Assembly: GCA_964428655.1 (NCBI GenBank)
Contig: CAYRYE010000001.1
Coordinates: 9,328 to 73,327 of the forward strand
DNA from: an uncultured Gammaproteobacteria bacterium
Lineage (GTDB): Bacteria; Patescibacteriota; Microgenomatia; UBA12405; JAHJSD01
DNA: 64,000 nt
Reading direction: 5' to 3'
Part shown: positions 9,588-44,683 of the stretch, one piece after another
Numbering within the stretch: the stretch's first letter is position 1
Layout of the letters: each line of letters starts with the position of its first letter
The notes under the pieces: model-generated
What the model was told of the DNA's origin: nothing
Database searches by the model: none
The model's input: only the letters and a program-made list of their open reading frames with translations
Translations under genes and position numbers: made by a program

Positions 9588-9596
9588 ACCCTATTT

Positions 9597-13528: not shown

Positions 13529-13936
13529 CTATTTCCAACTTATCTCATGTGTTTGAGGATCAATTTCTTTGCTGTGGATCCAGTCAAGGATTTTTTGGCG
13601 AGTGACAGCTGAAGTTGTTACCTTGATAGTAATTTCAAGTTTTAATGGACCGATGTAGCGAATAGCAATGTTTTTGTCGGGATAGGGGAGATAAGGAGAA
13701 AGAGGGAAGTTGTTTAAAATATTCTGGACAAATTCTTCTTCAGTGATTCCCTTATCGCCGGTATCAGCAGGGGACTTAGTGGGGATTTTAGTTGGATACG
13801 GGGTGGGAAGAAGTGTTGGTATTACCTCTTCTGCTTTTTGAGAACCGAATAGTTTAAAACCCAGAAGCAGACTGGCGATCAAAGCTAAAAGAATGATTAA
13901 CTGATATTTTTTAACAAAAGCAATTAATTTTTTCAT
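13529..13936 (-). CDS. Hypothetical membrane-anchored protein (N-terminal TM, about 100-aa extracytoplasmic domain); first gene of the T4SS-like operon
   Basis: Signal-anchor MKKLIAFVKKYQLIILLALIASLLLGF; no recognisable family. Confidence 0.4.
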   Translation of the reverse strand: MKKLIAFVKKYQLIILLALIASLLLGFKLFGSQKAEEVIPTLLPTPYPTKIPTKSPADTGDKGITEEEFVQNILNNFPLSPYLPYPDKNIAIRYIGPLKLEITIKVTTSAVTRQKILDWIHSKEIDPQTHEISWK

Positions 13937-13945
13937 TTTTAATAA

Positions 13946-16579
13946 TCAGTGACAGCGGATAAATTCAGCCACGCTGGCAACTGGTACGCTCTTAAAATTA
14001 ATTCTACCAGATCCGCCCCAGGCCTGAGCCACTTGAACCATACCGCTATCTAAATCAGCGCCGATGACGATAGCGATGTGACCATATGCTCCTGATGTCC
14101 AAATAGTGTTATCGCCAATTTGAATAGCAGCCATGTTTTCTCCTGGCGAATATACATGAGTACATTGGCCACAACCGCTTCCAACAAAGTGTTTAGCGTC
14201 ACCACAAGCGGGTAGATTTTGTTCAACGGCTCGTTTAAAACCAACACACTGAAGAGTTCCATCCCAAGCAAGTGATATTTTAAAAGTATCTATGATTCTC
14301 TCGGCAGAACCAATCAATTGTTGTAAGGTTTGGCTAGCTCGAAGACAGATAGCAGTCATGTTCATAGAGTTGTTAGTAACCGCCGAAATATTGCAGTCTT
14401 GAAGAATAAAGTTAATATAACAGGCAACTTTTGCCGATTGATTGTTTATACTTTGACAATAACCAACATCGCTTTCAAAAGGAAGCATGTCTCTTATTTC
14501 ACCAATAAGTTCTTCTTCGGTAATTCCTCTTTCAATTGGCGGAGCTAAAGTTTGGTTATACATTTGCATTGGTCCCAAGTTAATGAAAAACAAAACACCA
14601 AAAACGAGAACAAAAATAAGAGCAAGAGGGACAACAGTAGTAACGGTTCCTATGGCAAGGATAATGCCGACCGGGTAATAAATAATGTCTTTGAACCATT
14701 TCAGGACAGGAATTTTGCCAAGAATATCACGGAGTTTAGTTGATAGACCGAGAGTAAAGAAGTTTAAAACCTCAGGAATTTTAAGTTTTTCAGCAATCTT
14801 TTTGATTAGACTCCAGCCCAATCTTAGAGCTTCTGCTCCCAGCCAAATAAGAATACTGGCCCCACCAGTGGGGATGCCTAAAGCGGTGGCCAAAGCAACG
14901 GCAAGAGTTTCTCCGGCAAGGAGTTCTGCTGCTTTTTCAGCTGTCACAAGAACTCCTTTTTCGGCCAGTCTTTTAACTATTTTTTCAGCGGCGTATTTGT
15001 AAAACTTTGTTTTTATTTTCCCAGTAAGTTTTCCAGTAAGTTTTTTAATCGGGATTTTCTTTTTAACCCATCTGTTAAATCTACTTTTGGCTATGTGCTG
15101 ACCAAAATCGGTAACGGGTCTAACAGTTTCCATAATCGCATAGTTAGGGCTTTCTGAAACTTGGCAGGCGGTGCCACCAGGCTTATAAACAGTATCCCAA
15201 TAAGCGATTGCCGGATCAGAAGAGATTGTTTTGGCTGCTGGTTGTTCTTGGACATAATCGTAGAATTTCTGCCAAACATCAACTAACTCTTGCAATTTTG
15301 GTGTTTGGGCAAGTTGGGTGATGGTATATAAAATTGCTGGGGGGTTATTTTTTCCTGGCCTAAGAACATGGAAAATATTGATTGGTTTTGCAGGCAGGTT
15401 ATTGGTTTGTTCAACAAGAGTTTTTTGCCGAGGCATAGGCGTAACTGCCACCGCTCTGCTAAAGTAAGTTGGCAGGCTGGTGAGGGTTTGAACAGCAAGC
15501 TCTACAGCCGGAGTGACTGTTTCCGCGGATGGATCTAAACCAATGTTTGCCAGGTGTCCAATAACGATTTGCTCAACATTATTTTGGGCGTCTTGCCTGA
15601 TTTGTGTTGGCGTCATGTCTTTGGCAATTGCTTTAAGGATAGGAGTAACAGAAGTAATCATTCCTTGTACTAATTGAGTTCCTTCTTTTTCAGTTAGAGA
15701 AACATTGTGGTTTGACAAGACAATGGCAATAGTTGGAGTAGCGATTAGCGGGGCTATTCCTGACTGATCGGCTGTTTCATGAGCAGTTAGTGTTAAAGCA
15801 GCGGCAATTTGATTTAAGGCTTCAGGTGGTAAAGTAGTCGTGATTGATTCTGACAGTGATTGGGGTAGTTCTGGTGAAGGATTGGCGATGCGATAGGCAA
15901 CAGCCGTTGTGGCAGTTGAAAATTGATTTGTTTTGGCTAGTTTCCGGACTTGATCAACAATTGTTTTTCTGATTTCTGGTTGGGGAATAACTCCTTTGAT
16001 TGTGGTTTGTTGTACAGTGCCTGTTTGAAAAGAAGCAAATACCACTTCTTCTGTTTGAGTAGTGGTTAAAGGAATATTATCAACACTTGTGACGGTTGTT
16101 ATTTGTTCAGTTCTCTGTTCTAAAATTCGAGAGATAACCTTGTCTATTTCTGTTTGACTTAAACCATATCTTTCTAAAATTTTACTTAATTCTGTTTTGT
16201 CTCGGATTTCAGCAACAAGTCTTTCTCTTTCTTCTAAAGCTTGAAGCATTTCTTTAAGATTAGAAGGCACTTCACCATGAGTAATAGTATTGCCAGTGAT
16301 AGGCATTTCTTGATAAAAGAAAGCAGAAATTCTATGGAAGAAATCATAAAGATTTTCTTGTTCTTCTAAAGTAAGACCAAAAAGCTGTTCCAGACGAGCA
16401 AAAAGTTGGTTCAGTTGTTCATCAGGCCAACCCAGTTTTTTGAGCGCTTCTTGTTTGTTTGGAGTATCTGATACTCGAGTCGAGAGATCAAAAAAATATT
16501 CAGCGAGAGCGTTGTTTCTTGGTTCAGTAAGCTGGACTCTTGTTTTGGTTTGACTAATTGCCTCTATCTCTCTGGCCAT
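13946..16579 (-). CDS. Large multi-domain T4SS-associated protein: N-terminal Q/T-rich region, central polytopic membrane segment, C-terminal CHAP-type peptidoglycan hydrolase
   Basis: C-terminus carries C...GQCTHV...YGHIAIVIG, matching the CHAP Cys/His catalytic pattern. Several TM helices around residues 560-640. Resembles VirB1/VirB6-like components of Gram-positive conjugation systems. Confidence 0.55.
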   Translation of the reverse strand: MAREIEAISQTKTRVQLTEPRNNALAEYFFDLSTRVSDTPNKQEALKKLGWPDEQLNQLFARLEQLFGLTLEEQENLYDFFHRISAFFYQEMPITGNTITHGEVPSNLKEMLQALEERERLVAEIRDKTELSKILERYGLSQTEIDKVISRILEQRTEQITTVTSVDNIPLTTTQTEEVVFASFQTGTVQQTTIKGVIPQPEIRKTIVDQVRKLAKTNQFSTATTAVAYRIANPSPELPQSLSESITTTLPPEALNQIAAALTLTAHETADQSGIAPLIATPTIAIVLSNHNVSLTEKEGTQLVQGMITSVTPILKAIAKDMTPTQIRQDAQNNVEQIVIGHLANIGLDPSAETVTPAVELAVQTLTSLPTYFSRAVAVTPMPRQKTLVEQTNNLPAKPINIFHVLRPGKNNPPAILYTITQLAQTPKLQELVDVWQKFYDYVQEQPAAKTISSDPAIAYWDTVYKPGGTACQVSESPNYAIMETVRPVTDFGQHIAKSRFNRWVKKKIPIKKLTGKLTGKIKTKFYKYAAEKIVKRLAEKGVLVTAEKAAELLAGETLAVALATALGIPTGGASILIWLGAEALRLGWSLIKKIAEKLKIPEVLNFFTLGLSTKLRDILGKIPVLKWFKDIIYYPVGIILAIGTVTTVVPLALIFVLVFGVLFFINLGPMQMYNQTLAPPIERGITEEELIGEIRDMLPFESDVGYCQSINNQSAKVACYINFILQDCNISAVTNNSMNMTAICLRASQTLQQLIGSAERIIDTFKISLAWDGTLQCVGFKRAVEQNLPACGDAKHFVGSGCGQCTHVYSPGENMAAIQIGDNTIWTSGAYGHIAIVIGADLDSGMVQVAQAWGGSGRINFKSVPVASVAEFIRCH

Positions 16580-16586
16580 GGCTGGT

Positions 16587-18467
16587 TTAAACTTCTACTT
16601 TTATCGGTTGAATTGTTGGTCTTGATTTGGGTGATGGTGGGGTAGTTTTTTCCCTTTTCATTTCTAATAATTCTTCCGGGTTAGAGGTAATTACTTTGTG
16701 TTCGTTGGGAGAAGCAATGACTCGAATAGCCACATGGTTTTTGCCGGCAAAAAAGATTCCTTCACCGATATCAGCTCCCAAAAGCAATTGTCTTTCCCCC
16801 TCAGACAAGTAGAAAACATCAGTAACTTGATCCATGGCTGCCGGGTGCTGTTTGAGCAGTATTTGGATTGAAGAGTTAGTGACGATAGCCTTGCCGTAGT
16901 CAGATTGCAGGAAATCCTGGACATCTTGGGTAATGGTAGTAACGCCAAGATAATATTTCCTTGCCCTTTTGGCTAAGCTGTAAAGGAACTGAGCAGAATC
17001 TTTGTATTTCATTAGATACCAGGCCTCATCAACGACCAAAATGCGTCGTTTCATTTCTCGTCGGATTTTATTCCAAATAAAATCTAGGATAATATACATT
17101 GCTGTTGGTCGAAGGGCTTCCTCAAGATCTCGAATACCAAAGACAACAAATTTGTTTTTAATGTCAACATTAGTTTGAGAGTTGAACAAACCAGCGAATG
17201 AGCCTTTAATGAATTTTTCTAATCGGGCTGCTAAAGAAGCGGCCTTAGGATCTTCCATACCAATTAAGACTTTATAGAGGTCTTCAATTAAGGGCATTTC
17301 TTTTCCTTTTTGAGACTCTGGGTCAAGAGTGATACCTTTCATTTTGTAAGATTGAATTAGGGCTCGATCCAGCAGAGCCTCTTCTTCCGGATTTAACTCA
17401 CCCATAATTACCTTGAATAAGCCGTGAAGAGCCAGAATTTTGCGACCTAATTCATTTTCACTGTTTTCCTGGGAAGAAATTTCTAAATCGAAAGGATTTA
17501 TTTTTGAAGGCGAGTTAAAGCTAAAAGTGATATATTGGCCGCCAACAGCTTTGGCCAAATCCTGGTATTCGTTTTCCGGGTCAATGACCATGATTTCTGT
17601 ACCAAACATTAAAGATCGGAAAACTTCCAGTTTTATCATATAAGATTTTCCTGCGCCCGATTTAGCAAAAACGATAGAGTTCGCGTTTTCCAGGGAGAAT
17701 CGGTCAAAAATAACTAGTGAGCCATTGTGTTCGTTGATGCCGTACATGATTCCTTTGTCGTCAGAAAGATCAGAGGAGACAAAAGGAAAGGTTGTTGCCA
17801 GTGAAGTAGTGTCCATATTGCGAGTAATTTTGAGCAGATCTTGACAAATTGGCAAAGTGGTTTTAAACCCATTTTCCATTTGCAGAGTGGCATGTTTGGG
17901 GATAATTAAAAGTGATCCTAAGTTTGATTCAAGTTCCTTAGTGGTCTGGTTTAACTGGTCAATTGATTTAGCTCCAATAGTGATATAGAGACCGAGCTGG
18001 AAAAATTTCTCAATACCCTTAACCAGCTCTTCTTGCAAGGTAAGTGCATCCTCAAGTTTAGCTTTAGTAGCCGGATTGATTACTCTGCCTCGTTGAATGT
18101 CTGAGGAGAGTTCAGCTTCCATTTCAGCAATTTTGCGACGGAGATCGTCTAAGATTTCTTTACCTTCAGTGGGATAGATATACATGGAAGTATCTAGAGA
18201 GTGGTCGAAGTTGATTAACGATGAAAGCCAATTGGCGGAGACAAACCTGGGGTAGTTAACAATAAAAAGAGTTCGATAGTAACGATTATTAATTCTAACC
18301 CAATCAAAATCGACTTCAATAGCTGAAGGGGCGACAATGTCTTTTACAGAAACCAACCCAGCAGAAAACGAAACAGGTTTAGTTTTGTCAGTTGGATTAA
18401 CTGTTGTTTTTTGGTTTTTGGTTGACTTCTTTACTGGTTTGATTTTGTTGAAAAAATCTAGGATCAT
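16587..18467 (-). CDS. virB4: VirB4/TrbE-like type IV secretion ATPase (core and C-terminal ATPase part)
   Basis: DWVRINNRYYRTLFIVNYP... WL..L entry motif typical of Firmicutes-type VirB4; Walker A AKSGAGKSYMI; Walker B ILVVDEAWYLM. Confidence 0.85.
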   Translation of the reverse strand: MILDFFNKIKPVKKSTKNQKTTVNPTDKTKPVSFSAGLVSVKDIVAPSAIEVDFDWVRINNRYYRTLFIVNYPRFVSANWLSSLINFDHSLDTSMYIYPTEGKEILDDLRRKIAEMEAELSSDIQRGRVINPATKAKLEDALTLQEELVKGIEKFFQLGLYITIGAKSIDQLNQTTKELESNLGSLLIIPKHATLQMENGFKTTLPICQDLLKITRNMDTTSLATTFPFVSSDLSDDKGIMYGINEHNGSLVIFDRFSLENANSIVFAKSGAGKSYMIKLEVFRSLMFGTEIMVIDPENEYQDLAKAVGGQYITFSFNSPSKINPFDLEISSQENSENELGRKILALHGLFKVIMGELNPEEEALLDRALIQSYKMKGITLDPESQKGKEMPLIEDLYKVLIGMEDPKAASLAARLEKFIKGSFAGLFNSQTNVDIKNKFVVFGIRDLEEALRPTAMYIILDFIWNKIRREMKRRILVVDEAWYLMKYKDSAQFLYSLAKRARKYYLGVTTITQDVQDFLQSDYGKAIVTNSSIQILLKQHPAAMDQVTDVFYLSEGERQLLLGADIGEGIFFAGKNHVAIRVIASPNEHKVITSNPEELLEMKREKTTPPSPKSRPTIQPIKVEV

Positions 18468-19182
18468 CTTGTTTTAGCTTTACTCTTCCTTTAATAATAG
18501 CTCCTTGTTGATTTAAAGCGTCAATATTATCAACCAGACTTGATTCCTGATTATAAATCTGATAGAAAAGCTGGATTAACTCTTTGCTTTTAAGCTGTTT
18601 AATTGATAAACCCAGTCTACCAAAAAGACGAATTAAATGTTCTTTTTTGGGTTCTAAAGTTGCCTTAGCTCTTTCCAAGATCTTTTCTTTAGCCATAGGT
18701 AGTGATTTGTTTGTTTGTTTGTTTAATAGTGAGAGTGGGAGAGGCAGACTAGTTTTAACCGCTGTTTGGACTCCTAGTTCGACTGAAAAGAAAGGGATAA
18801 TTATATAGAAAGATTTGGCTAAAACGTTGTTTTTCTTAACTACTTCCTCGACGAATTGGCGATAAAGGATAATCTGTTTTTTCAACAGTGGTTCGTTGAT
18901 TTTAGCCTCTTGTTTTTTGAGACGATTAACATAATTGGAAACATCCTTTAAAGTGGATCGGATCACGATTTGAACTGGAAAAGTAAGTGAGTTGAGCATG
19001 GCGGCGTAAGTGTAGATCATTGCCTCTTGTTCTTTTTCAGAAAGAAGGTCAAAGTTAACTGATGAAGTTTCTAAAATCATAATACAAGACCCATTTTTTA
19101 AAATGGTTAAATCTTCCTTGATGTCTTCGATAGGGAGATGTTCTTGAGTGGTTCCTTTAATAGCAATTTTGTTTAAGTCCAT
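18397..19182 (-). CDS. VirB4 N-terminal-domain-like protein; likely the 5' portion of a split or frameshifted virB4
   Basis: ILETSSVNFDLLSEKEQEAMIYTYAAMLNSLTFPVQIVIRS resembles the N-terminal region of Gram-positive VirB4 ATPases. It overlaps the next ORF by 71 nt in a different frame. Confidence 0.5.
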   Translation of the reverse strand: MDLNKIAIKGTTQEHLPIEDIKEDLTILKNGSCIMILETSSVNFDLLSEKEQEAMIYTYAAMLNSLTFPVQIVIRSTLKDVSNYVNRLKKQEAKINEPLLKKQIILYRQFVEEVVKKNNVLAKSFYIIIPFFSVELGVQTAVKTSLPLPLSLLNKQTNKSLPMAKEKILERAKATLEPKKEHLIRLFGRLGLSIKQLKSKELIQLFYQIYNQESSLVDNIDALNQQGAIIKGRVKLKQDDPRFFQQNQTSKEVNQKPKNNS

Positions 19183-19188
19183 GGGAGC

Positions 19189-20037
19189 TTAGCTCTTGGT
19201 TGTAATTTTTAACGGTGAGATTACTTTGCCTTCTACCTTGATTTTGATTATATCAAACTGATAGCTTTCTTTTTCTGCCAATATTAGGTATTCACCATTG
19301 GCCAGAGGAGTGGCGGTTTTGAATTGTCCTAATTGATTGGTTCGTAAGGCTCGAACCGGGTTTTCAGAGATGTCTTGAATTTCAATAATTACATCTTCCA
19401 TGATTTTTCCGTCTTGATTTGTAACCATACCAACAATAATATTAGGGGTTGTTGGTGGTTGGGGCATAGGTATTTCCCCGAAAGCAGCTTCAATAGTTGG
19501 TTTCGGTGTCACCACAGTTTTAGGAATGTCGATTTCTACTCTAGGAGTGATGGTTGTTTTTCTTTCGGGTGGCTTTTGAATTTGAACAGGAGCAGTAACT
19601 TCTTTTTTCTGATCAGTCTTTTTTTGTTTTTTGGGAAGCGAGGCAAGAAACTCTTCTAATTGAGGTTTTTTTGATATAATGGGCTCTTCTTCTTCTTCTT
19701 CTTCCTCCTCCTCTTCTTTAAAGCTCGTGTCAAAGATATCTAGTGTGGTTAGTTGTTTTTGCCAGAGATAAATTGTTGGCGAAAGGACGCTTTTGACAAA
19801 AGCAAAAATCCAGACCTCTAGTGGTCTTTCATTGACAGGTAAGAAAGCTAGGGCGATTCCAAGGAGGCCAAAACTTAAAACTAAGGGCCATTTTATAATA
19901 AAAGATAGATGACTGGAGTAAAAAATAAAGGCAATAACTAGACCACCGGCAACCTTAAAAAACTGCTTCAAAGTCATATTTCCTACTAGTCGAAACTCGT
20001 AGGAAGAAATTTGTTGTGGGATGGGATGTTGTTCCAT
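19189..20037 (-). CDS. PrgI-family (VirB3-like) membrane protein with poly-Glu linker and C-terminal beta-sandwich (carboxypeptidase-regulatory-like) domain
   Basis: N-terminus ...ISSYEFRLVGNMTLKQFFKVAGGLVIAFIFY plus a second TM helix matches the PrgI/VirB3-like pattern. It sits directly upstream of virB4, as in Gram-positive T4SS. The EEEEEEEEEEE run is encoded by a GAA/GAG repeat at about 19690-19725. Confidence 0.6.
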   Translation of the reverse strand: MEQHPIPQQISSYEFRLVGNMTLKQFFKVAGGLVIAFIFYSSHLSFIIKWPLVLSFGLLGIALAFLPVNERPLEVWIFAFVKSVLSPTIYLWQKQLTTLDIFDTSFKEEEEEEEEEEEPIISKKPQLEEFLASLPKKQKKTDQKKEVTAPVQIQKPPERKTTITPRVEIDIPKTVVTPKPTIEAAFGEIPMPQPPTTPNIIVGMVTNQDGKIMEDVIIEIQDISENPVRALRTNQLGQFKTATPLANGEYLILAEKESYQFDIIKIKVEGKVISPLKITTKS

Positions 20038-34334: not shown

Positions 34335-34349
34335 TATTGATGACCAAGT

Positions 34350-34421
34350 GGCAGGGGAGGGAGTCGAACCCTCGGCCTTCGCCTTATGAAAGCGCTGCTC
34401 TAACCACTGAGCTACCCTGCC
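34350..34421 (-). tRNA. tRNA with CAT anticodon (elongator Met or lysidine-modified Ile2)
   Basis: Reverse complement GGCAGGGTAGCTCAGTGGTTAGAGCAGCGCTTTCATAAGGCGAAGGCCGAGGGTTCGACTCCCTCCCCTGCCA. 7-bp acceptor, T-arm GAGGG/TTCGACT/CCCTC, anticodon loop TTCATAA. Confidence 0.85.
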
Positions 34422-34497
34422 TTCGCAACCTCACTGCTTCGGTAGGCAGGTTTGCCTTTTTTTATGGCTTGCTTGCCATAGTTTTAGCGAAGGTGGG

Positions 34498-34571
34498 TGG
34501 ACCCGAGCGGAGTCGAACCGCTGACCTTCCGGATGCAAACCGGGTGCTCTAACCAACTGAGCTACGGGCCC
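34498..34571 (-). tRNA. tRNA-Ala (TGC)
   Basis: Reverse complement GGGCCCGTAGCTCAGTTGGTTAGAGCACCCGGTTTGCATCCGGAAGGTCAGCGGTTCGACTCCGCTCGGGTCCA. G3:U70 Ala identity pair; anticodon loop TTTGCAT. Confidence 0.9.
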
Positions 34572-34623
34572 TCCGATTCGGAGGGCTTGCCCGCCAAACC
34601 GGAGGGCGGGCCCTTACAATTTG

Positions 34624-34693
34624 TTGCGGGGCCAGGAGTTGAACCTGGTCTGTGAGGTTATGGGCCTCACGTGCAGCCGTACACCACCCCGCG
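34624..34693 (-). tRNA. Initiator tRNA-fMet (CAT)
   Basis: Reverse complement CGCGGGGTGGTGTACGGCTGCACGTGAGGCCCATAACCTCACAGACCAGGTTCAACTCCTGGCCCCGCAA. C1xA72 mismatch at the top of the acceptor stem; CGCGGGG start identical to E. coli tRNAfMet; anticodon loop CCCATAA. Confidence 0.85.
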
Positions 34694-34720: not shown

Positions 34721-35086
34721 CTAAAGATTGTCAAATTTAAACTCTGTTCCTATGAATAATTGCCACCATTGTTGCCAGGGAGCGAGAGATTCAAACATTT
34801 GTCCTTTGGATTGGAGTAGAGATAGATTTGGAATTGTAGGTAGAACCAAAATAATTTCATTATCATGAGTCATTCCTAGTTTTTCTCTTGCCTCTCGAAG
34901 AATAAACTCTTCAGTTTGATAGTATTCCTGCTTTTGGGTTAAAAATTGATTTTCTTCTTGAAGTTGATTTAACTCGTTTTGCATTTCCTTGAGCTTTCTC
35001 TTTGCCTTATACCAGGTACGAACCCTTTGGTTTAAACTAATAACCAAACTTAAAAGGATGACTGGTAGAATTAACTTCTTAACCAT
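34721..35086 (-). CDS. ftsB: FtsB/DivIC-like septum-formation initiator (TM + coiled coil)
   Basis: N-terminal TM; heptad-rich LKEMQNELNQLQEENQFLTQKQEYYQTEEFILREAREKLGM is a typical FtsB/DivIC motif. Confidence 0.65.
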   Translation of the reverse strand: MVKKLILPVILLSLVISLNQRVRTWYKAKRKLKEMQNELNQLQEENQFLTQKQEYYQTEEFILREAREKLGMTHDNEIILVLPTIPNLSLLQSKGQMFESLAPWQQWWQLFIGTEFKFDNL

Positions 35087-35132
35087 TTCAATACTTGCAT
35101 GAAGCCCGACCCCATGATATTATAAGCTAATT

Positions 35133-35996
35133 ATGAATTCAGAACTGGCTTTGGAAAATGCAATTGGGAAATTTATTTCTCATTTAGAATCTTTAAAGCG
35201 CTCCAGTAATACGATTGTAGCATATAGGGGCGACTTGAGTCAGCTTGTTGATTTCCTGAAAGGGCAAACAATAGATTTACTAACTCAGGTTGAAACTAGC
35301 CATATTGAAGAGTTTAAAAAGTACTTGACCAAGAAAGGCTATACCCCAAAATCTATCTCCAGGAAGTTAAATTCAGTAAAAAGCCTTTTTAGGTTTTTGG
35401 TTGAGGAGGGAATTCTAGATAGAGATCTTTCCAGAGCAGTTAAACACCCTAAGATCAAAAATGACTTGCCTCGGATACTAAAATCCATAGAGTATCGAGC
35501 CTTACGAGATGTTTGTCGTCATGACAAAAGGACTTTAGCTATTACAGAGCTGATGCTCCAGGTAGGTTTAAGAATTAGCGAGGTGGCCAGTTTACAGTTA
35601 GAAGATGTTGAGGCTGATAACTTGATAATTAGGGCTTATGAAAGCCATTCGCAGAGAAAAGTGCCTTTAAATCGGGCCGTTAAAGAAGCAATAGGAACCT
35701 ACCTAAAAGAACGTTATCAATCAAGATATAAGTTTTTGTTTGTTACTAAAACCGGAAAACAACTCTTGGTAAGAAATATTAGAAGTATTCTTAATCGCTA
35801 TTTTGATAAGGCAGGTCTGCAGGGTGTGAAAGTAAATGATCTTCGCAACACTTTTATTGTTGAACAGTTGTCAGCGGGGGTACCCTTGGACATAATTAGT
35901 AAAATCGTTGGTCACAAAAGGCTTTCCACCACGGAAAGATACTTAAACATGGTTGAAAAGTCAGAAAAAGAAGGAATCAGTCTCAAAGAATTGTAA
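35133..35996 (+). CDS. xerD: Tyrosine site-specific recombinase (XerC/XerD family)
   Basis: Core-binding N-domain; catalytic ...LRISEVASLQLEDV..., HKRLSTTERYLN (the R..H..R..Y tetrad is visible); 287 aa, typical Xer size. Confidence 0.8.
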   Translation: MNSELALENAIGKFISHLESLKRSSNTIVAYRGDLSQLVDFLKGQTIDLLTQVETSHIEEFKKYLTKKGYTPKSISRKLNSVKSLFRFLVEEGILDRDLSRAVKHPKIKNDLPRILKSIEYRALRDVCRHDKRTLAITELMLQVGLRISEVASLQLEDVEADNLIIRAYESHSQRKVPLNRAVKEAIGTYLKERYQSRYKFLFVTKTGKQLLVRNIRSILNRYFDKAGLQGVKVNDLRNTFIVEQLSAGVPLDIISKIVGHKRLSTTERYLNMVEKSEKEGISLKEL

Positions 35997-36011
35997 TAGG
36001 AAGCTTTTTTC

Positions 36012-38354
36012 TCATACTTGGGAACGACGAGTGATTTCTGCCTCTACCACTGAAGCAGGCTGGCCATATTTTAAGACGCTTAATCTTTTAATAGTTTTAG
36101 CCAATTTGGGATTTCTTCTTTTTTTCTCAATTTCTATATCCTTAGTGGTATCCATGGAAAATGGCAGTACGGGCTCGTTATCGATAACTGTTTTTATGTA
36201 AGCATGGAACCGTTCTACGTTAAGAAGATCTTGTTCGCTAAAGACAGGTTGGAATTCACGAGCCAAGTAATTAGCATCAGAAACACCAACCTGAAAAGAC
36301 ACCACTGTTCCCACATTGCCGAAAATGGCATTTTTAACCTCTTCTTCCATTTGGCCAATAAATTGGTTGGCTACGGTAAGATTCAGGCGATACTTTCTGG
36401 CCTCGGAGAGAATTTGGGCAAAATCAGGGGTAGCAAAGTTTTGAAACTCATCAACATAAAGATAGAAATTGCGCCTCTGATCTTCCGGTATATCTTGGCG
36501 GCTCATGGCGGCCATAAGGATTCTGGGAACTAGGATTAGTCCCAAGAAGGAAGAATTTTCTTCGCCGATTTTTCCCTTAGCCAAGTTAATAATTAAAATT
36601 TTGCCCTCGTCCATTACCTTGCGGAAGTCAAAAGCTGATTTTGATTGACCGATGATGTTGCGCATCATTTTGTTAGTTACAAATCGGCCGAATTTGGAAA
36701 CAATGTAATCCAATGTTTCAGATTTGTGAAACTCAGCAGTATGGGCGATTTGTTCGGTCCAGTATTCTCTAACAATAGGGTCTTTTACTTTTGGTAGAAT
36801 TCGTTGTAGATATGGCCCGCCTGGATTTTGAAGAATTTTTACCACTTCCATAAAAGTTGTTCCTGGCACACTCATGGCAGTTAGCATGGCGTTTCTGATC
36901 GCATGTTCAAACCGGGGGCCAACAATACCGGTTTTATACGGATCGTAAAGTTTGTACATCAGATTGATTATTGCGGCAGAGACGAAGTGTTTTTGATCTT
37001 CAGTTTCTACTTCTAAAAGGTTAAGTCCAATTGGTCTTTCTGTTTCTGAAGGATCAAAATAAATTACATCTTCGGCCCTCTCGGGAGGGATGTATTCTAG
37101 AATTTGTTCGGCCAAATCATGGGGGTCGATTAAACAAATCCCTCTACCTGCTTTAATATCCTGGATAAGCATTTCCTTCATTAACTCTGTTTTGCCTGCG
37201 CCTGTTTTGCCGATAATGTAGAAATGTCTCTGCCGATCTTTTTCCTGGATATAGATTGGCTTTTCCACTCCTCGGTAACCGCTTTTACCTAAATACAAAC
37301 CAGATTCGGGAAGATTGGACGGCGGCGGAGCGGGTTTAGCTTTCAGACAGTAAACATTAGGAGTTTCTACTGTTTTATTGGGGAGATGGAAGATTGAAGC
37401 CAGTTCTTCGCTGTTTAAAATGGTTTTTATATTTCGCCAGATAATTGGTTGATAGCGGTAAATAAAGTCAATCATAAAAGAATAACGGAAACGGATTTTC
37501 TTTTCCGAAAAACCATTCCAAGGAGATTCAAATTGAGCAAAACTTGATTTGATGTTGTTGAGCTTGGCTTTAGCAATATCCATTGTTGGAGCGCAAACAA
37601 CAATTCTGATTGAAGTTTCGAATCCTGGTTTACTGCACTTGGACTCGATCGCTTCCAAAGTTCGAGCGTCCACTTTAAAACTGGCTTTTTCTGGGTCAGC
37701 CTCTTGTTTTTTGGTGTCACTGACATATGTTTTGCCTGACTTTTGCCAGTTGATATCAGTTGGGCTTATTAAAATCTGGATGGCCGCTCCCTCGTTTTCT
37801 TCTAATTTAGCCATAGCGGAAGTGATTGCTGAAAGAGGATCAGTGGGAAGATCTTTGTAGGTTTTTAAAGGATAAAAGGATTCTTTTTTAAACTTTAGCC
37901 AGGCGTAGCTAATTTTTCCGCTTTTGGAAAAGATATTATACTCATCGACTTCTTTTATCTCGGCATCAGGGTAGCCGCCATGAATTTGCCGCTCTACTAA
38001 TTCGCGCAGTTTTTGAGAGCAGGAGACAAAGAATTTAATTTCTCCATCAGTACTGACGATCTCAAAAGAAATATGGGGTTGACTTTTAAGGAATTTAAAT
38101 TTACCTCCGGTTTTGATTGAATAGAGAGAGGCCATTATTTGTTCCATGGCATCGATTTTCGTCTCATTGTCTCGGGGAACAGCGATTCTAAACAGGACGG
38201 ACTTTAAAGCCTCTTCTTCTCTTTTACGCCATCGCCACCAAAGAACAAAACTATAAAATAATAATCCAAGACCCAATAGTGTTATAACGGCAATTAAAAA
38301 GAGAACAATATAATAGAATAAGGTACTAGTTAGTTGGTTAACAGTTTGATCCAC
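36012..38354 (-). CDS. virD4: VirD4/TraG/TraD-family type IV coupling protein (FtsK/HerA-superfamily ATPase with N-terminal TM anchor)
   Basis: N-terminal TM helices; Walker A YIIGKTGAGKTELM; Walker B LYVDEFQNFATPDF; long N-terminal periplasmic/cytoplasmic domain as seen in other CPR-type coupling proteins. Confidence 0.8.
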   Translation of the reverse strand: MDQTVNQLTSTLFYYIVLFLIAVITLLGLGLLFYSFVLWWRWRKREEEALKSVLFRIAVPRDNETKIDAMEQIMASLYSIKTGGKFKFLKSQPHISFEIVSTDGEIKFFVSCSQKLRELVERQIHGGYPDAEIKEVDEYNIFSKSGKISYAWLKFKKESFYPLKTYKDLPTDPLSAITSAMAKLEENEGAAIQILISPTDINWQKSGKTYVSDTKKQEADPEKASFKVDARTLEAIESKCSKPGFETSIRIVVCAPTMDIAKAKLNNIKSSFAQFESPWNGFSEKKIRFRYSFMIDFIYRYQPIIWRNIKTILNSEELASIFHLPNKTVETPNVYCLKAKPAPPPSNLPESGLYLGKSGYRGVEKPIYIQEKDRQRHFYIIGKTGAGKTELMKEMLIQDIKAGRGICLIDPHDLAEQILEYIPPERAEDVIYFDPSETERPIGLNLLEVETEDQKHFVSAAIINLMYKLYDPYKTGIVGPRFEHAIRNAMLTAMSVPGTTFMEVVKILQNPGGPYLQRILPKVKDPIVREYWTEQIAHTAEFHKSETLDYIVSKFGRFVTNKMMRNIIGQSKSAFDFRKVMDEGKILIINLAKGKIGEENSSFLGLILVPRILMAAMSRQDIPEDQRRNFYLYVDEFQNFATPDFAQILSEARKYRLNLTVANQFIGQMEEEVKNAIFGNVGTVVSFQVGVSDANYLAREFQPVFSEQDLLNVERFHAYIKTVIDNEPVLPFSMDTTKDIEIEKKRRNPKLAKTIKRLSVLKYGQPASVVEAEITRRSQV

Positions 38355-38478
38355 GATAATAATTTCTAATTTCTAACCAAATCCCAATGACTCAATGCCC
38401 AATAACTAAAGTTTATTATTTTAATTTAATCATTAAGAATTGGATACTGGTCATTTTTTAGGTTAATTAGAAATTAAG

Positions 38479-38826
38479 TCAATTTATTTTTTTCAATACC
38501 ACTCCCTTTGGTTTCATTTTAATAAGTCTCAGACACCATTCAGCCAACCAGCGAATCGCCTGATTGACTTTTTGATTAAGCCCTTGTACCAACTGCTGCC
38601 TGCTCAATGGCAAAACAATTTTTGGCTTTTTAGCTGAGGGAGCGGTGACTAGAACTTGGCCGGTTTGATCATCAGTAACTGGTTTTGCTAAGTAGATATC
38701 ACCTTTTTCTATTTTCTCCAACCAGCCAAGAATCTCTCTTGGAATTCTTGTTTCTGGTATTTTCTTAACAGGAATTTCCCCAGATTTTTCGGTTCTTATT
38801 TGTTCTTTTTCTACCCTTTCCACCAT
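38479..38826 (-). CDS. Hypothetical protein (115 aa), operonic with virD4
   Basis: No recognisable motifs. Confidence 0.35.
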   Translation of the reverse strand: MVERVEKEQIRTEKSGEIPVKKIPETRIPREILGWLEKIEKGDIYLAKPVTDDQTGQVLVTAPSAKKPKIVLPLSRQQLVQGLNQKVNQAIRWLAEWCLRLIKMKPKGVVLKKIN

Positions 38827-38868
38827 TTTTTTCAGTATAACACTGTTAGACTTTTCTTTCAGGAAGCA

Positions 38869-40554
38869 TCACTGTTGAATTTCTGCCTTTTTTTCTTTCA
38901 AGAACTGGCTGAAACTTTCTATAAATTCAACTAATGTGGAGAAAGGAACATCGACTAAAGCAGTAAAGAAAACACTAATAATGTTATATTCTTTCCATTT
39001 TTTAGACAACCATTGACCAAGCTTGGCTAGCGGGACAGAAAGCAAATCAAGAGAAAACTCCCAAAAGCTAGTTTTTTCTTCAATGGTCATTTCTTTGGCT
39101 CTTTGTCTAATTATTAAGCCGGCAAAAACGACCATGGCTACATTCATAGTATCTAGAATAAGAGAGGTGATGGGAATTCTGACAAGATAGAAAATCCAAA
39201 AAGTAATTCCCAGCGAGATCAAACTAATGGCGGTATAGAGAGAGCCAATAATAAGCTTGGCAATCAAGCCTCTTTTTCTTCGTGGTCTGAGTTCGTAAAC
39301 GTCGTCTTCTTCTCTTTGAGAAACGATTTTCGTAATCTCGCTAACCACCCTTTTGAAATTTCCTTCTTTAGGAAGCCTTATAATTGCTACCAGAAAAAAC
39401 ATTACCAAAGTGGGGATCAAAATATCTACAACAATAGCCAGAGGACTGAATTTTCCGTAAAAAAGTTTGGCCAAAGGTACTTCAACTATGAACAGAGATA
39501 GGCCGCCGGCGACAAAAATTGAGAGAGTTGAATAAATGGCGGCTCGGAAAAGACGTGACTTTAGGGTGGAAAGCCTTTGGTAATAAGTTTTCTCAATTAA
39601 ACTTTTTAGAATCTTTGAATCAGAGAATTTTTTACTCATTTCCAGGGGCTTTTTAGAGATCACCTCAAGGATATCACCGATAATCAGATAAACGGTATCG
39701 TATTTTTCGCAGATTTTGTGAAATTCGCCAGATAAAGGATGATTGAAGTCATTTTTAATACTATCCCTGATTGAGAGAATATTTTTGCTAATTGTTTCTA
39801 AAAAGAGTTTGTCAGGCTTTGTCCATTGAGGGTAGTGAAATTTTAAGAGACGATAACTGATGATTGGAGAGTCTAAATGAAAGAGGGCATGATGAACGGC
39901 AATAAAAATTTGGACTTTTTTTTCTTCCTCAGCAATTTCGACTCCTGGAGCAGACCTGATCCTTTCTTCCATTAAATTGGTCATAAAATTAATAAGAACA
40001 TTTTCTTTTAGGGGAGGATCCAAAATTTCTTCTATTTCACAGGCAGCAATCTCCAGAATCCAGTTATAGAAATTGACTTTTTTCTTAATTTTTATCTGCA
40101 CTGAGGAGTGACTATTTGATAAAGGATTATTTTCAAGGATATAAATATATTTTTCCAGAATTTGTTGGACTTTGCTTATTTTCTCTCTTGGGATTTTATC
40201 GTTAAGGAAATGGCAGCCGCGGATCAGTTCCAAAACTAATGGTTCCGCTATTTTTTCAGGTTTAAGATTGGAGATTAAGCTAAATCCAGAAAGTTCGGAA
40301 ATCAGCCTTCTTTTCAACATTCTTTCGATAGCTGCTCTTCTAATAAGGTGTTCTTCTTTCCAATCAATAATTTTTCTAATCTTCTCGTAGAAGAAGGCTA
40401 TTTTAGAAGCGATTTCATCGACATGAATAGTGGCCACTTCTCCTTTTGTTTCTAAGCTTAAGAGAATTTTTTGATATTCCTGGACTAGCTCTTGAATTGC
40501 CGATGATGATCCGGCGCTGGTATCGTGAGTGAAAATTACTTGATTGTTATTCAT
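38869..40554 (-). CDS. Hypothetical protein, large cytoplasmic N-domain + four C-terminal TM helices; first gene of the virD4 operon
   Basis: 561 aa; TM helices about 340-470; no family recognised. Confidence 0.4.
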   Translation of the reverse strand: MNNNQVIFTHDTSAGSSSAIQELVQEYQKILLSLETKGEVATIHVDEIASKIAFFYEKIRKIIDWKEEHLIRRAAIERMLKRRLISELSGFSLISNLKPEKIAEPLVLELIRGCHFLNDKIPREKISKVQQILEKYIYILENNPLSNSHSSVQIKIKKKVNFYNWILEIAACEIEEILDPPLKENVLINFMTNLMEERIRSAPGVEIAEEEKKVQIFIAVHHALFHLDSPIISYRLLKFHYPQWTKPDKLFLETISKNILSIRDSIKNDFNHPLSGEFHKICEKYDTVYLIIGDILEVISKKPLEMSKKFSDSKILKSLIEKTYYQRLSTLKSRLFRAAIYSTLSIFVAGGLSLFIVEVPLAKLFYGKFSPLAIVVDILIPTLVMFFLVAIIRLPKEGNFKRVVSEITKIVSQREEDDVYELRPRRKRGLIAKLIIGSLYTAISLISLGITFWIFYLVRIPITSLILDTMNVAMVVFAGLIIRQRAKEMTIEEKTSFWEFSLDLLSVPLAKLGQWLSKKWKEYNIISVFFTALVDVPFSTLVEFIESFSQFLKEKKAEIQQ

Positions 40555-41827: not shown

Positions 41828-42484
41828 ATGATAAATAACAAGTCTCTTATTGATCTTTTGTTTCCCAAAAAATGTCTGGTTTGCCGAAAGGCAGGCAGTT
41901 ATCTTTGCCGCCAGTGTCGAGAAGAAACCGTCCTTTTAAAACTCCAAACACATCGGGCTTGTCGAAAAAAGTTTTTAGCTGATGGATTGGTCAGTCTCTA
42001 CCAGTACCGATTTCCCCTAAATAGATTGTTAAAAGATTTTAAGTATTACCAAGTTAGAGATTTGCGTATGCTGATGGTAGATTTAACAGTATCTGCCTTA
42101 ATAAAACAGAGAGTTTTGCCTTTTTGGAAGAAAAATAATTTTGTTTTTATCCCCATGCCTCTTTTTCCAGCTCGTTGTCTTTGGCGGGGCTTTAACCAAA
42201 GCGAAGTTATTTTGGAAACGGTTTGCCAACAACTTAATTTGAAATTTGACAATAGAATTTTGATCCGGAGCAAGTGGACCAAAGAACAAGCCAAGCTTAG
42301 TGGGGAAGAAAGGCGTAAAAACATTATCAATGCTTTCCAAGTTCTGGACGAGAAGAAAGTTATGGGCAATAATTTTGTTGTTTTTGATGATGTCTATACT
42401 AGCGGCTCTAGTTTAAAGGAGGCTATTAAAACTCTTAAATCTTCCGGGGCGATGAAAGTTTGGGGGTTAACCCTTTGCCGCTGA
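41828..42484 (+). CDS. comFC: ComF/ComFC-family phosphoribosyltransferase-domain protein (competence-associated)
   Basis: N-terminal 4-Cys zinc finger LFPKKCLVCRK...CRQC; C-terminal PRTase motif VVFDDVYTSGSSLKEA. Confidence 0.85.
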   Translation: MINNKSLIDLLFPKKCLVCRKAGSYLCRQCREETVLLKLQTHRACRKKFLADGLVSLYQYRFPLNRLLKDFKYYQVRDLRMLMVDLTVSALIKQRVLPFWKKNNFVFIPMPLFPARCLWRGFNQSEVILETVCQQLNLKFDNRILIRSKWTKEQAKLSGEERRKNIINAFQVLDEKKVMGNNFVVFDDVYTSGSSLKEAIKTLKSSGAMKVWGLTLCR

Positions 42485-42523
42485 TTAATTGATAATAATG
42501 GGGATTGAAGGTATAATTCGAGC

Positions 42524-43366
42524 ATGAAAAAAGCAAGTATTGTCTTACTGATTTTAATAACTTGTTTGTTGTTTTTTCAAAGACCGACTCTTGCTGCTGA
42601 CTTAAGTGAGGCAATAGAGTCAAGAGTGTTTTCTGAAACTGAGCCCTTAAGTAAACCAACCAAAGGCAGATTGGAGTTAGCTTTGGAGCGGCAAAATATT
42701 GGTCCGCTTTCACCGCTTAATTTTTTGAAACATGCGATTCGAACCGCGATTAAGCGAGGAGCGCCGACTAACACTATCATTTTAGTTCTTCTTTTGCCTT
42801 TGGTTGGAGTTATTGTTAGCGGGCTTTATTATCTTGTTGGCTTAACCGGTTTTGGTATTTTTATGCCGGCAATGATATCAGTTGCTTTTTTAGCTACTGG
42901 AATAGTTGGCGGTCTAATTCTTTTTGCTATGATTCTGGTTTTGACTTTGGCAACAAGAAGAATTCTTAGGAAAATTAAATTTCATCAGCGATCAAGACGA
43001 GCAATTACTCTTTGGGTGGTTTCTTTGGGCACATTCCTCCTTTTGTTTTTTGCCCCCGCTTTTCATTTGCTTGACTTAACTAGGATTTCCATTTTTCCGA
43101 TTTTATTTATAATTCTCCTTTCTGATGAATTTGTTAGGGTTCGAACCGGGATGAGTCCAAAAAAAGCAATTAATATGATTGGAGGAACACTAGTTATTTC
43201 TATTTTTGGAGCCTTGATAATGGGCTGGGAGTGGTTTCAAGAATTAATTTTACTGAACCCGGAGATTAGTTCTCTTTTAATTCTTCTTGTTAGTTTTTCG
43301 GTTGGCCGCTACACAGGCTTTCGTCTATTGGAATATCGCCGCTTCAAAAGTGTAGTTAGAAAATAA
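42524..43366 (+). CDS. Polytopic membrane protein with signal peptide (probable 7TM partner of the ATP-grasp/retropepsin peptide-modification module)
   Basis: Signal peptide plus about 6-7 TM helices; immediately upstream of, and co-oriented with, the ATP-grasp genes. Confidence 0.5.
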   Translation: MKKASIVLLILITCLLFFQRPTLAADLSEAIESRVFSETEPLSKPTKGRLELALERQNIGPLSPLNFLKHAIRTAIKRGAPTNTIILVLLLPLVGVIVSGLYYLVGLTGFGIFMPAMISVAFLATGIVGGLILFAMILVLTLATRRILRKIKFHQRSRRAITLWVVSLGTFLLLFFAPAFHLLDLTRISIFPILFIILLSDEFVRVRTGMSPKKAINMIGGTLVISIFGALIMGWEWFQELILLNPEISSLLILLVSFSVGRYTGFRLLEYRRFKSVVRK

Positions 43367-43370
43367 TACA

Positions 43371-44681: not shown

Positions 44682-44683
44682 AT

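Follow-up and report, generated by a model that had tools for sequence, protein, structure and literature searches.

The window analyzed here—64,000 nucleotides of an ultra-small Patescibacteria/CPR bacterial chromosome—carries between positions 35,133 and 40,554 four genes that fall into three separate units and do not form one system: a xer gene, a module of the genes for a 115-aa protein and a 780-aa ATPase, and the gene of a 561-aa membrane protein. The best explanation for the region as a whole, to which we give a probability of about 0.6, is that of these three units the module encodes a coupling protein (T4CP) of pLS20-like descent together with an adaptor, both working for a relaxase-less T4SS. 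This reading builds on gene identities, architecture, conservation, synteny, gene fusions, and the lack of a relaxase in the scanned ORFs. All four ORFs lie where the initial annotation had placed them, and their homologues—more than 6,889 for the ATPase, 1,412 for the 561-aa protein, and 88 for the 115-aa protein—mark them as genuine genes rather than chance frames. The features discussed are listed below.

13529..20037, minus strand: T4SS core cluster by dnaN (P-loop_TraG 1.1e-33, AAA_10; PrgI 5e-7); members on the minus strand are a 135-aa, an 877-aa, a VirB4-like (16587-18467), a 261-aa, and a PrgI/VirB3-like (19189-20037) protein
23478-23780 and 23777-24088, minus strand: two VirB2-like T4SS pilin genes (T4SS_pilin 1.7e-6 and 2.6e-7)
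24146-26002, plus strand: gene of a 618-aa protein
26002-27723, plus strand: SpoIID-like hydrolase gene (SpoIID 4.8e-19)
34348-34693, minus strand: three tRNAs
34721..35086, minus strand: DivIC/FtsB septum-formation gene (Pfam DivIC 1.9e-14), divergent from xer
35087..35132, plus strand: xer–divIC spacer with promoter-like motif (spacers of 28 loci inspected)
35133..35996, plus strand: Xer-type tyrosine recombinase, 287 aa (Pfam Phage_integrase 2.4e-26, Phage_int_SAM_1 4.6e-16)
36012..38354, minus strand: T4CP-type ATPase, 780 aa, GTG start (N-terminal TM helix, DUF8128, VirD4/TrwB-like motor)
36135..37307, minus strand: P-loop motor of the ATPase, aa 350-740
36426-36461, minus strand: Walker B of the ATPase
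36609-37001, minus strand: all-alpha insertion of the ATPase
37188-37220, minus strand: Walker A of the ATPase
37320..38222, minus strand: DUF8128 alpha/beta domain of the ATPase, aa 45-345 (precomputed PF26449)
38232..38342, minus strand: single N-terminal TM helix of the ATPase, aa 5-41 (hydropathy 2.79)
38479..38826, minus strand: gene of the 115-aa small protein
38518-38556, minus strand: C-terminal Trp-rich amphipathic helix of the 115-aa protein, IRWLAEWCLRLIK
38869..40554, minus strand: gene of the 561-aa Patescibacteria-specific membrane protein
39106-39543, minus strand: four TM helices of the 561-aa protein

The three minus-strand genes had initially been joined into one operon. Their shared orientation holds, but the intergenic gaps measure 42 and 124 bp, and promoter and terminator scans of the region scored no better than shuffled sequence and did not resolve an operon structure. 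Base composition is uniform across the window, with a GC content of 0.36–0.40 throughout.

By sequence, the product of the 780-aa gene belongs with the VirD4/TrwB-type coupling ATPases—a VirD4/TraG-type T4CP, as the initial annotation had it—and on this the Pfam families TrwB_AAD_bind and TraG-D_C, the PDB profile search, Foldseek, and homologues on Bacillus plasmids agree. Three Pfam models exceed their cut-offs: TrwB_AAD_bind (28.9 bits; cut-off 20.5), TraG-D_C (28; 22), and DUF87 (31.9; 23.2). T4SS-DNA_transf stays below its own (19.3 bits; 20.1), so that of the two T4CP models earlier put forward as a check only TraG-D_C passes. The NCBIfam T4CP equivalogs all score far below cut-off (e.g., SXT_TraD with 51.9 vs 366), and the PDB profile search matches only T4CPs, namely TrwB (1.4e-3) and DotL (6.7e-3). 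With an AF2 model of the ATPase (pLDDT 82.6), Foldseek retrieves TrwK/VirB4 (4e-14), TrwB (6.5e-9, TMt 0.57), and also Cagbeta and HerA. Both motifs quoted previously are present and invariant in 40 homologues: YIIGKTGAGKT at residues 379–389, with Walker A (GKTGAGKT) at 382–389, and LYVDEFQNFATP at residues 632–643, with Walker B (YVDEF) at 633–637. Between Walker A and Walker B, the model places a helical block of aa 452–582. A single N-terminal TM helix, not the two typical for T4CPs, is followed by WWRWRKRE, and by the positive-inside rule the rest of the protein is predicted to be cytoplasmic. This helix is found in 74 of 79 homologues and is missing in fused forms and in the Bacillus plasmid homologues. 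DUF8128 itself has 2,479 cluster representatives at E≤1e-3; all six long members that were checked combine it with a T4CP-like ATPase, and the domain is common to the Patescibacteria ATPase, the Bacillus plasmid T4CPs, and proteins of SPO1-like phages. In comparisons over identical sets of genome pairs, conservation of the ATPase exceeds that of FtsH (59.7% vs 53.2% identity, n=9) and equals that of VirB4 (59% vs 59%, n=2).

The closest parallels along the whole length of the protein are the T4CPs of Bacillus pLS20-like/MPF-FATA plasmids (e.g., CP120602.1 WEZ26732.1; NZ_CP086062.1 WP_229762801.1), which share DUF8128, the TrwB-like motor, the same Walker A and B motifs, and the TraG-D_C region. 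These full-length homologues cover profile positions 70–734 with E values of 1e-62 to 1e-64 (about 1e-63, with 24–25% identity). They head conjugation operons and stand directly before a gene of the replication-relaxation family—the relaxase-family gene—followed by TcpD/TcpE-type proteins and a VirB4-like ATPase. They lack both the N-terminal TM helix and a 115-aa partner, whereas the window gene lies on the chromosome, is inherited vertically, and has no relaxase among the scanned ORFs. With TrwB of R388, Cagbeta, and DotL, the window ATPase shares a RecA-like nucleotide-binding domain, an inserted all-alpha domain, and a membrane anchor. It is, however, very remote from them (E about 1e-3), bears one TM helix instead of two, and inserts an extra 300-aa domain between anchor and motor—a layout that Foldseek ranks closest to full-length VirB4/TrwK. 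The two-domain architecture also recurs in phrog_5156 of the SPO1-like Bacillus phages Shanette, CP-51, and SP8 ('VirD4 component-like'; phrog E 5e-95), with tblastn aligning aa 82–776 of the window ATPase at 21% identity; these proteins, in contrast, are phage-encoded and have hypothetical genes as neighbors. Orphan coupling ATPases of Patescibacteria were already published in 2025 by Quinonero-Coronel et al. (PMC12102498), who found T4CP homologues in 2,918 of 3,035 genomes and relaxases in only 103. The window ATPase belongs among these, being VirD4-like, chromosomal, relaxase-less, and far from virB4, as is usual for them, and the window has its T4SS near dnaA/dnaN like the Microgenomatia of that survey. 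The survey does not cover the DUF8128 architecture, the small partner with its fusions, the xer–divIC synteny, or how strongly the gene is conserved.

The 115-aa protein consists of a variable charged N-terminus, a PVTDDQxGQVLV...IVLPL core, and the Trp-rich amphipathic helix at the C-terminus. In 31 of 72 species loci, a homologue sits immediately upstream of the ATPase; in two (L066 and L069) it is joined to the ATPase in one reading frame, and its amphipathic helix takes the place of the TM helix. As judged from this gene order, the 115-aa and 780-aa genes constitute a conserved two-gene module. Adjacency and fusion suggest that the small protein might act as an adaptor or membrane-proximal regulator of the ATPase—a role for which Cagbeta–CagZ provides the precedent of a T4CP-bound small regulator. 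Neither the 115-aa nor the 561-aa protein finds a match in Pfam, NCBIfam, PHROGs, PADLOC (single sequence), or the PDB profile search.

The 561-aa protein was previously counted as a second partner of the ATPase. Its described build is borne out, with a cytoplasmic domain of about 335 soluble helical residues preceding four hydrophobic helices, to which two amphipathic C-terminal helices are to be added. Despite its 1,412 homologues it belongs to no Pfam family, and the structure prediction advised earlier gave a model (pLDDT 77) for which Foldseek found no fold match in PDB or BFVD. Besides the window, only L089 and L066 have this gene next to that of the ATPase; it lies 400 kb away in the complete genome OZ246397.1 and elsewhere in two more genomes, which rules it out as an obligate partner and leaves the 115-aa protein as the only conserved one. 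The 561-aa protein thus appears to be a lineage-specific neighbor and a doubtful member of the module. Two independent adjacencies—one in the clade of the window, one in L066—leave a weak link.

The 287-aa protein is best described from its sequence relationships as a vertically inherited, housekeeping Xer-type tyrosine recombinase rather than an island integrase, because the ATPase has xer–divIC as its commonest neighbor among 80 species-level loci and the base composition is even; here the initial annotation is upheld. Its more specific label of XerD goes too far, and the protein cannot be called XerD in particular: the models for XerD (TIGR02225, 157.1 bits; cut-off 329.6), XerC (156; 335), and archaeal XerA (155; 220) score equally and all below cut-off, the closest solved structure is XerA (4A8E, 5e-22; XerD 1A0P, 1e-20), and the canonical HxxR histidine is replaced by Asn235. 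Of the catalytic set R-K-H-R-H-Y, residues R147, R238, H261, and Y270 were found, while the alignment at the Lys position is unreliable; the tetrad noted before hence exists in these four residues, but not in the HxxR histidine, which is Asn in 40 of 40 orthologues. The protein shares with single-recombinase Xer systems (archaeal XerA, bacterial XerD) the SAM-like N-terminal domain, the catalytic domain, and the R, R, H, and Y residues, and differs from them by falling below every equivalog cut-off and by this substitution. The spacer between xer and divIC carries a conserved promoter-like motif, in relatives TTGACT-N17-19-TGATATTATAGG, that may represent a sigma-70 promoter, with the end of the −10 element 9 nt ahead of the xer ATG. 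The recombinase gene lies on the 5' side of the tRNAs, as had been noted, and is set apart from them by divIC. Its predicted function is that of the chromosome's own dimer-resolution recombinase, inherited together with divIC. Since the window holds oriC (dnaA at 9849-11186, GC-skew minimum about 12 kb), dif is expected about 270 kb away. Among 80 species-level loci, the ATPase most often neighbors xer (37 loci) and DivIC (31), with xer followed by divIC as a conserved pair in 31. Of 56 loci, 29 have a convergent xer no more than 5 kb downstream of the ATPase, 18 of them at 1 kb or less; a tRNA or inserted genes often stand between the two.

Genes of a T4SS lie in the same window at 13.5–27.7 kb and had escaped the initial annotation: VirB4, PrgI/VirB3, two VirB2-like pilins, and a SpoIID-like hydrolase are found 8–22 kb from the ATPase, beside dnaA/dnaN. 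The core cluster at 13529..20037 is probably the machine that the ATPase serves. T4SS parts adjoin the ATPase in 8–10 of 80 loci: the SpoIID/618-aa/pilin module does so in eight, from different classes, and VirB4 within 10 kb in two. That the commonest neighbors are xer and divIC instead of T4SS genes speaks against T4SS coupling, as does the published count of only 148 out of 5,713 patescibacterial T4CP genes near virB4 (PMC12102498). Relaxase families of Pfam gave no match in the scanned ORFs, which comprised most of those of at least 100 aa between ~8 and ~63 kb of the window but only a minority of the ORFs in 1–8 kb, 50–51 kb, and 59–64 kb. The earlier statement that no relaxase is recognizable nearby holds for these ORFs, and so does that of a chromosomal, non-conjugative locus that is not self-transmissible. 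In the mechanism we propose, the 780-aa protein would be a membrane-anchored VirD4/TrwB-type coupling ATPase, presumably hexameric, whose ancestor was the coupling protein of monoderm (pLS20-like, MPF-FATA) conjugation systems. Together with the small protein, it would recruit and energize the substrates of the relaxase-less, pilus-bearing T4SS by oriC, whose cargo is more likely protein than relaxase-piloted DNA.

Transposon data exist for S. epibionticum (PMC10633639 Table S1), in which the 139-aa hypothetical protein SEML1_0141 and, after a 13-bp gap, the 1,019-aa 'TraM recognition domain' ATPase SEML1_0142 (P-loop at 381–800) form the probable counterpart of the module; this orthology is suggested by annotation, size, domain offset, and the presence of a small gene upstream. 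Tn-seq scores SEML1_0141 as GD/ES/ES and SEML1_0142 as ES/ES/ES, whereas the T4SS cluster genes SEML1_0006-0010 and 0013-0019 are GD/ES/ES or NE/ES/ES, i.e., class II; SEML1_0011 is ES/ES/ES and SEML1_0012 non-essential. With the probable counterpart in class I (essential at T0) and most genes of the T4SS cluster in class II, these calls hint at a role that extends past the T4SS. The 2025 survey calls the t4cp of S. epibionticum non-essential, in conflict with ES/ES/ES for SEML1_0142 (Wang et al. Table S1).

This difference in essentiality is one reason to consider, as possible if unlikely, that the small protein and the ATPase were exapted as an essential, T4SS-independent membrane motor, exporting or importing a macromolecule alone or with another envelope machine. 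The survey itself raises exaptation and finds a T4CP in 96% but VirB4 in only 80% of genomes (PMC12102498), which together with the rarity of virB4 nearby and the conservation above FtsH would suit such a motor. The apparent absence of VirB4 is, however, inflated by MAG incompleteness, T4SS pilin/SpoIID modules recur beside the ATPase gene in several classes, T4SS genes share the origin-proximal block with it in the window, and no alternative channel partner was identified. Rather doubtful to us is a broader form, in which the small protein and the DUF8128 ATPase would form a membrane translocase that is essential throughout the phylum and has lost its tie to conjugation and perhaps also to the T4SS—needed from the first hours of growth, moving protein or nucleic-acid cargo for a host-dependent life, and linked to the cell cycle by its placement at xer–divIC. 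An import of DNA from the environment or the host, driven by the ATPase through the T4SS, is improbable. The known T4SS-based uptake system, ComB of H. pylori, is not known to use a T4CP, and the matches to the archaeal DNA-import ATPases CedB (2e-3) and CedD (3e-4), which together with the lack of a relaxase in the scanned ORFs and the inability of Patescibacteria to make nucleotides could invite this idea, are far below cut-offs and limited to the P-loop. The window offers no support for the DNA uptake suggested in the initial annotation, and competence of S. epibionticum depends on ComEC (review PMC12857230), whose loss is viable whereas the T4SS is essential.

More improbable again is an FtsK-like role, in which the ATPase would join Xer and DivIC at the septum to resolve chromosome dimers or segregate chromosomes. 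The ATPase is a member of the FtsK–HerA superfamily, and its strong synteny with xer and divIC prompted us to consider it as an FtsK substitute. We rejected this as the main reading, as the genes are convergent and often split, and the ATPase has neither a gamma domain nor detectable similarity to the FtsK motor: Pfam FtsK gives no match in it, and the E. coli FtsK motor as query retrieves nothing at E≤10 among window and locus ORFs. Moreover, the FtsK of S. epibionticum is canonical, includes a gamma domain, and is essential; in the same species Xer scores as non-essential, whereas the counterpart of the ATPase is essential (PMC10633639 Table S1). Hardly credible, finally, is an ICE or a defense island with the tyrosine recombinase as integrase, even though recombinase, nearby tRNAs, and T4CP resemble the edge of an ICE and PADLOC mad8 matches the ATPase at 6e-16. 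The gene arrangement persists across orders and classes, core genes flank the locus (divIC, ftsH, and a tRNA-modification/formyltransferase fusion), composition is uniform, and the scanned ORFs hold no relaxase, on which grounds the integrase reading was dismissed. The mad8 and HerA matches cover only the P-loop core of a gene that is universal and syntenic, and the defense reading was discarded likewise.

On the preferred reading of a coupling ATPase and adaptor for a relaxase-less T4SS, the locus adds to the catalogued orphan coupling ATPases of Patescibacteria, a kind already known. Patescibacteria account for a large part of bacterial diversity, and no T4SS before theirs had been shown to be essential to the bacterium carrying it. 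How a T4SS without relaxase selects and powers its cargo is the question on which the locus bears, as it shows the form of the coupling ATPase: near-universal, conserved above FtsH, descended from a pLS20-type conjugative coupling protein, and accompanied by a small partner that evolves fast and in some cases is fused with it. Two distractions are removed, since neither the Xer recombinase nor the 561-aa membrane protein is among the module's conserved parts. The module probably corresponds to a gene pair that scores essential in the only Tn-seq data set of the phylum, and ATPase and small partner provide a concrete two-protein target for finding the substrates of this T4SS.

The four open reading frames (ORFs) at issue lie exactly where the initial annotation had placed them. 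Seen from the ATPase gene, DivIC/FtsB and the tRNA genes are located on the far side of the recombinase gene:

34348-34693 (-), three tRNAs (Met, Ala, Met)
34721-35086 (-), DivIC/FtsB
35133-35996 (+), tyrosine recombinase, 287 aa
36012-38354 (-), coupling ATPase, 780 aa
38479-38826 (-), small protein, 115 aa
38869-40554 (-), membrane protein, 561 aa

All four ORFs have many homologues—for the minus-strand proteins >6,889 (ATPase), 1,412 (561-aa protein), and 88 (115-aa protein)—and are hence real, with none arising by chance. Of the three-gene operon proposed earlier, only the co-orientation is left; promoter and terminator scans gave background-level signal. The window comes from a Patescibacteria (CPR) chromosome with unlinked 16S and 23S rRNA genes and a tmRNA, and relatives of the ATPase are annotated as Shapirobacteria, Microgenomates, or Patescibacteria. 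Among the relatives' loci compared with the window (L-numbers), the record titles of L008-L087 are often misleading ('uncultured Gammaproteobacteria', 'Pseudomonadales', 'Bathyarchaeia archaeon', or 'Limisphaerales' on Patescibacteria contigs), and organism names taken from them are not to be trusted. Two further features of the window recur in its close relative L089: a 591-aa fusion of a ThiI/tRNA-methyltransferase-like HUP domain, an NFACT-R_2 RNA-binding domain, and a methionyl-tRNA formyltransferase (32559-34334, -), and a syntenic cluster (41828-46536, +). The latter encodes a ComF-like phosphoribosyltransferase, a 7TM_transglut membrane protein, two RimK-like ATP-grasp ligases, and an ATPgrasp_ST protein whose C-terminal tail resembles an aspartyl/Zn protease; it may serve peptide ligation or modification.

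The Pfam matches of the ATPase are weak but consistent, with TrwB_AAD_bind, TraG-D_C, and DUF87 over and T4SS-DNA_transf just under the gathering cut-offs; precomputed database annotation adds DUF8128 (PF26449) at the N-terminus. Its AlphaFold model (pLDDT 82.6) has three parts: a single long transmembrane (TM) helix at the N-terminus (aa 5-41, with WWRWRKRE after it), an alpha/beta domain spanning about aa 50-300, and a RecA-like motor whose Walker A (aa 382-389) and Walker B (aa 633-637) motifs are separated by an all-alpha insertion (aa 452-582). Foldseek against the PDB returned full-length TrwK/VirB4 (4e-14), then TrwB (6.5e-9, TMt 0.57), Cagbeta, and HerA, and a sequence-profile search of the PDB only the coupling proteins (T4CPs) TrwB and DotL. 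The deciding comparison is with Bacillus plasmids, on which full-length homologues (E about 1e-63, profile positions 70-734) head conjugation operons; the genes immediately after them encode a protein of the replication-relaxation family, membrane proteins of TcpD/TcpE type, and a VirB4-like ATPase. Hence, DUF8128 plus motor is a plasmid coupling-protein architecture. The VirD4/TraG-type assignment made at the outset is supported by Pfam, Foldseek, and plasmid homologues. The patescibacterial ATPase is a domesticated relative of the Bacillus plasmid coupling protein, which fits the published origin of the Patescibacteria type IV secretion system (T4SS) from MPF-FATA machinery (PMC12102498).

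The N-terminal domain alone matched 2,479 clusters at 50% identity; all six long members checked combine DUF8128 with a T4CP-like ATPase, some with long C-terminal extensions. SPO1-like Bacillus phages carry the same architecture (phrog_5156, E 5e-95), with full-length homologues in Bacillus phage SP8 (L088, 99766-102486) and 48 other phage records; these Herelleviridae homologues lie among hypothetical genes. One locus, L085, bears two tandem DUF8128 ATPase paralogues (1128-3587 and 3587-6163), the second without a TM helix.

Two unknown partners had been assigned to the ATPase, and only the smaller one, the 115-aa protein, holds up as a real partner. Searches of it against Pfam and the PDB gave no family match; the motif PVTDDQxGQVLV...IVLPL and a C-terminal IRWLAEWCLRLIK helix are common to its homologues. 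By iterated HMM, 31 of 72 loci have a homologue immediately upstream of the ATPase, and in many of the remaining loci the same place is taken by a small ORF of roughly 80-200 aa that cannot be aligned—several with a Trp-rich basic amphipathic C-terminal helix (e.g., L027, L030, L032, L068, L070, L073, L077). In two distant lineages the small protein is fused in frame to the ATPase (L066, 233-2773; L069, 9521-12262), and there its Trp-rich amphipathic helix takes the place of the N-terminal TM helix, leaving no hydrophobic segment. Structure prediction of the 561-aa protein (pLDDT 77) confirmed a large soluble domain with four TM helices: the cytoplasmic domain, helical and about 335 aa long, precedes these, and two amphipathic C-terminal helices follow. 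No sequence or fold relative was found outside Patescibacteria. It adjoins the small protein–ATPase module in the window, in L089, and, in opposite order, in L066; in OZ246397.1 its gene is 400 kb from the ATPase, and in two further genomes it is likewise elsewhere. We regard it as a lineage-specific neighbour whose functional link to the module is weak at most.

The recombinase consists of a SAM-like N-terminal and a catalytic domain (Pfam). It had been read as more likely XerD than an island integrase, of which the second half stands: the recurrent xer/divIC neighbourhood and the uniform base composition across the window argue against an integrase, and xer is vertically inherited. The scores against the NCBIfam models for XerD (157 bits), XerC (156), and archaeal XerA (155) are nearly equal and far under cut-offs, P. 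abyssi XerA and E. coli XerD come closest among solved structures, and the name should be 'Xer-type'. Conserved residues are R147, R238, H261, and Y270; in place of the HxxR histidine, the window protein has Asn235 (35835-35837, motif NDLR), as do 40/40 Xer orthologues from related loci, which looks like a lineage-wide active-site variant. The commonest neighbours of the ATPase in species-level loci are xer (37/80) and divergent divIC (31/80); where there is enough flank, xer is convergent and at most 5 kb away in 29/56 loci and at most 1 kb away in 18/56.

The xer-divIC spacer (35087-35132) holds a promoter-like motif toward xer, TTGACT-N17-19-TGATATTATAGG, conserved in the spacers of L004, L008, L018, L021, L022, L039, L082, and others. 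In the window, the predicted -10 element ends 9 nt ahead of the ATG, suggesting that the xer mRNA is nearly leaderless. In many relatives (L004, L009, L024, L026, L028, L039, L047, L051, L052, L056, L071, L072), a putative tRNA gene separates the 3' ends of the convergent ATPase and xer genes, in several with anticodon TAT (Ile) as read by eye (e.g., L004, L024, L071, L072); in the window, this gap is 15 bp only and the tRNAs lie beyond divIC.

The window also encodes T4SS genes, the core cluster of which begins right after dnaN; they are listed here together with the origin region and several large ORFs:

8476-13520, origin region: yidC, rnpA, dnaA (9849-11186), PP2C phosphatase, dnaN
13946-16579, 54589-56112, 56155-58932 (-), large ORFs without Pfam family
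24146-26002, 52648-54552 (+), large ORFs without Pfam family (all five 507-925 aa)
16587-18467, VirB4-like ATPase (P-loop_TraG, 1e-33)
19189-20037, PrgI/VirB3-like protein (Pfam)
23478-24088, two VirB2-like pilins (Pfam)
26002-27723, SpoIID-like hydrolase (Pfam)

The rnpA, yidC, and dnaA genes span 8.5-11.2 kb, dnaN 12.4-13.5 kb, and the cumulative GC-skew minimum falls at ~12 kb. The window holds oriC, and hence a dif site is not expected in it. The position of the T4SS genes beside dnaN and the 16S gene is the arrangement published for Microgenomatia (PMC12102498). A divergent VirB6/PrgH-like channel protein has been reported as 'missing' in Microgenomatia, and the 877-aa ORF beside VirB4 is a candidate for it. 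From these genes to the coupling ATPase it is 8-22 kb; elsewhere, the SpoIID/618-aa module adjoins the ATPase in 8/80 other species, in two together with the pilins (L072, L079), and VirB4 lies within 10 kb in 2/80 species.

In conservation and ESSENTIALITY, the ATPase stands at 59.7% identity versus 53.2% for FtsH (same genome pairs, n=9), and at 59% versus 59% for VirB4 (n=2); Xer reaches 48%, the small protein 38%, and DivIC 31%. In the S. epibionticum Tn-seq data (PMC10633639, Table S1), SEML1_0142 is called ES/ES/ES (ES, essential) and belongs to the 61 class I essential genes. Its product, annotated 'TraM recognition domain-containing protein', has 1,019 aa and a P-loop at residues 381-800, and its family is marked as core and Patescibacteria-enriched. 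Thirteen bp upstream of SEML1_0142, the 139-aa hypothetical SEML1_0141 retained no insertions (GD/ES/ES). This pair is probably the counterpart of ours, to judge by size, domain offset, annotation, and the small gene upstream. A 2025 survey (PMC12102498) describes the S. epibionticum t4cp as non-essential, which is at odds with the ES/ES/ES call. Orphan VirD4-like genes in Patescibacteria are already published and the domain is in Pfam; the conserved, sometimes fused small partner, the full-length homology to the Bacillus plasmid coupling protein, the conservation above FtsH, and the xer-divIC synteny appear to be new.

What the module does can be weighed against this background. A defence island is unlikely, and so is an integrative conjugative element: Pfam scans of most ORFs >=100 aa between about 8 and 63 kb matched no relaxase family, in line with the initial reading that none is recognisable nearby. 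In the published survey, relaxases occur in 103 of 3,035 Patescibacteria genomes (PMC12102498). DNA uptake by the ATPase, the use suggested at first, is likewise judged unlikely. The recurrent Xer and DivIC neighbours might call to mind an FtsK-like role for the ATPase; this too is unlikely, and S. epibionticum has an essential FtsK of canonical type, gamma domain included, alongside a non-essential Xer (PMC10633639, Table S1).

The main rival, which we regard as rather improbable, is that the pair was exapted into an essential translocase and lost its dependence on the T4SS. In its favour, T4CP homologues are more widespread than VirB4 (2,918 vs 2,417 of the 3,035 genomes) and usually unlinked from it (148/5,713 T4CP genes near virB4; PMC12102498), and the probable counterpart is class I essential, with most T4SS cluster genes in class II. 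The best reading, to which we give a probability of about 0.6, is that ATPase and small adaptor serve a relaxase-less T4SS. The coupling ATPase would form a membrane-anchored hexamer with the small protein as its juxtamembrane adaptor, and together they would recruit and power cargo—probably protein—for a pilus-bearing, chromosomally encoded T4SS.
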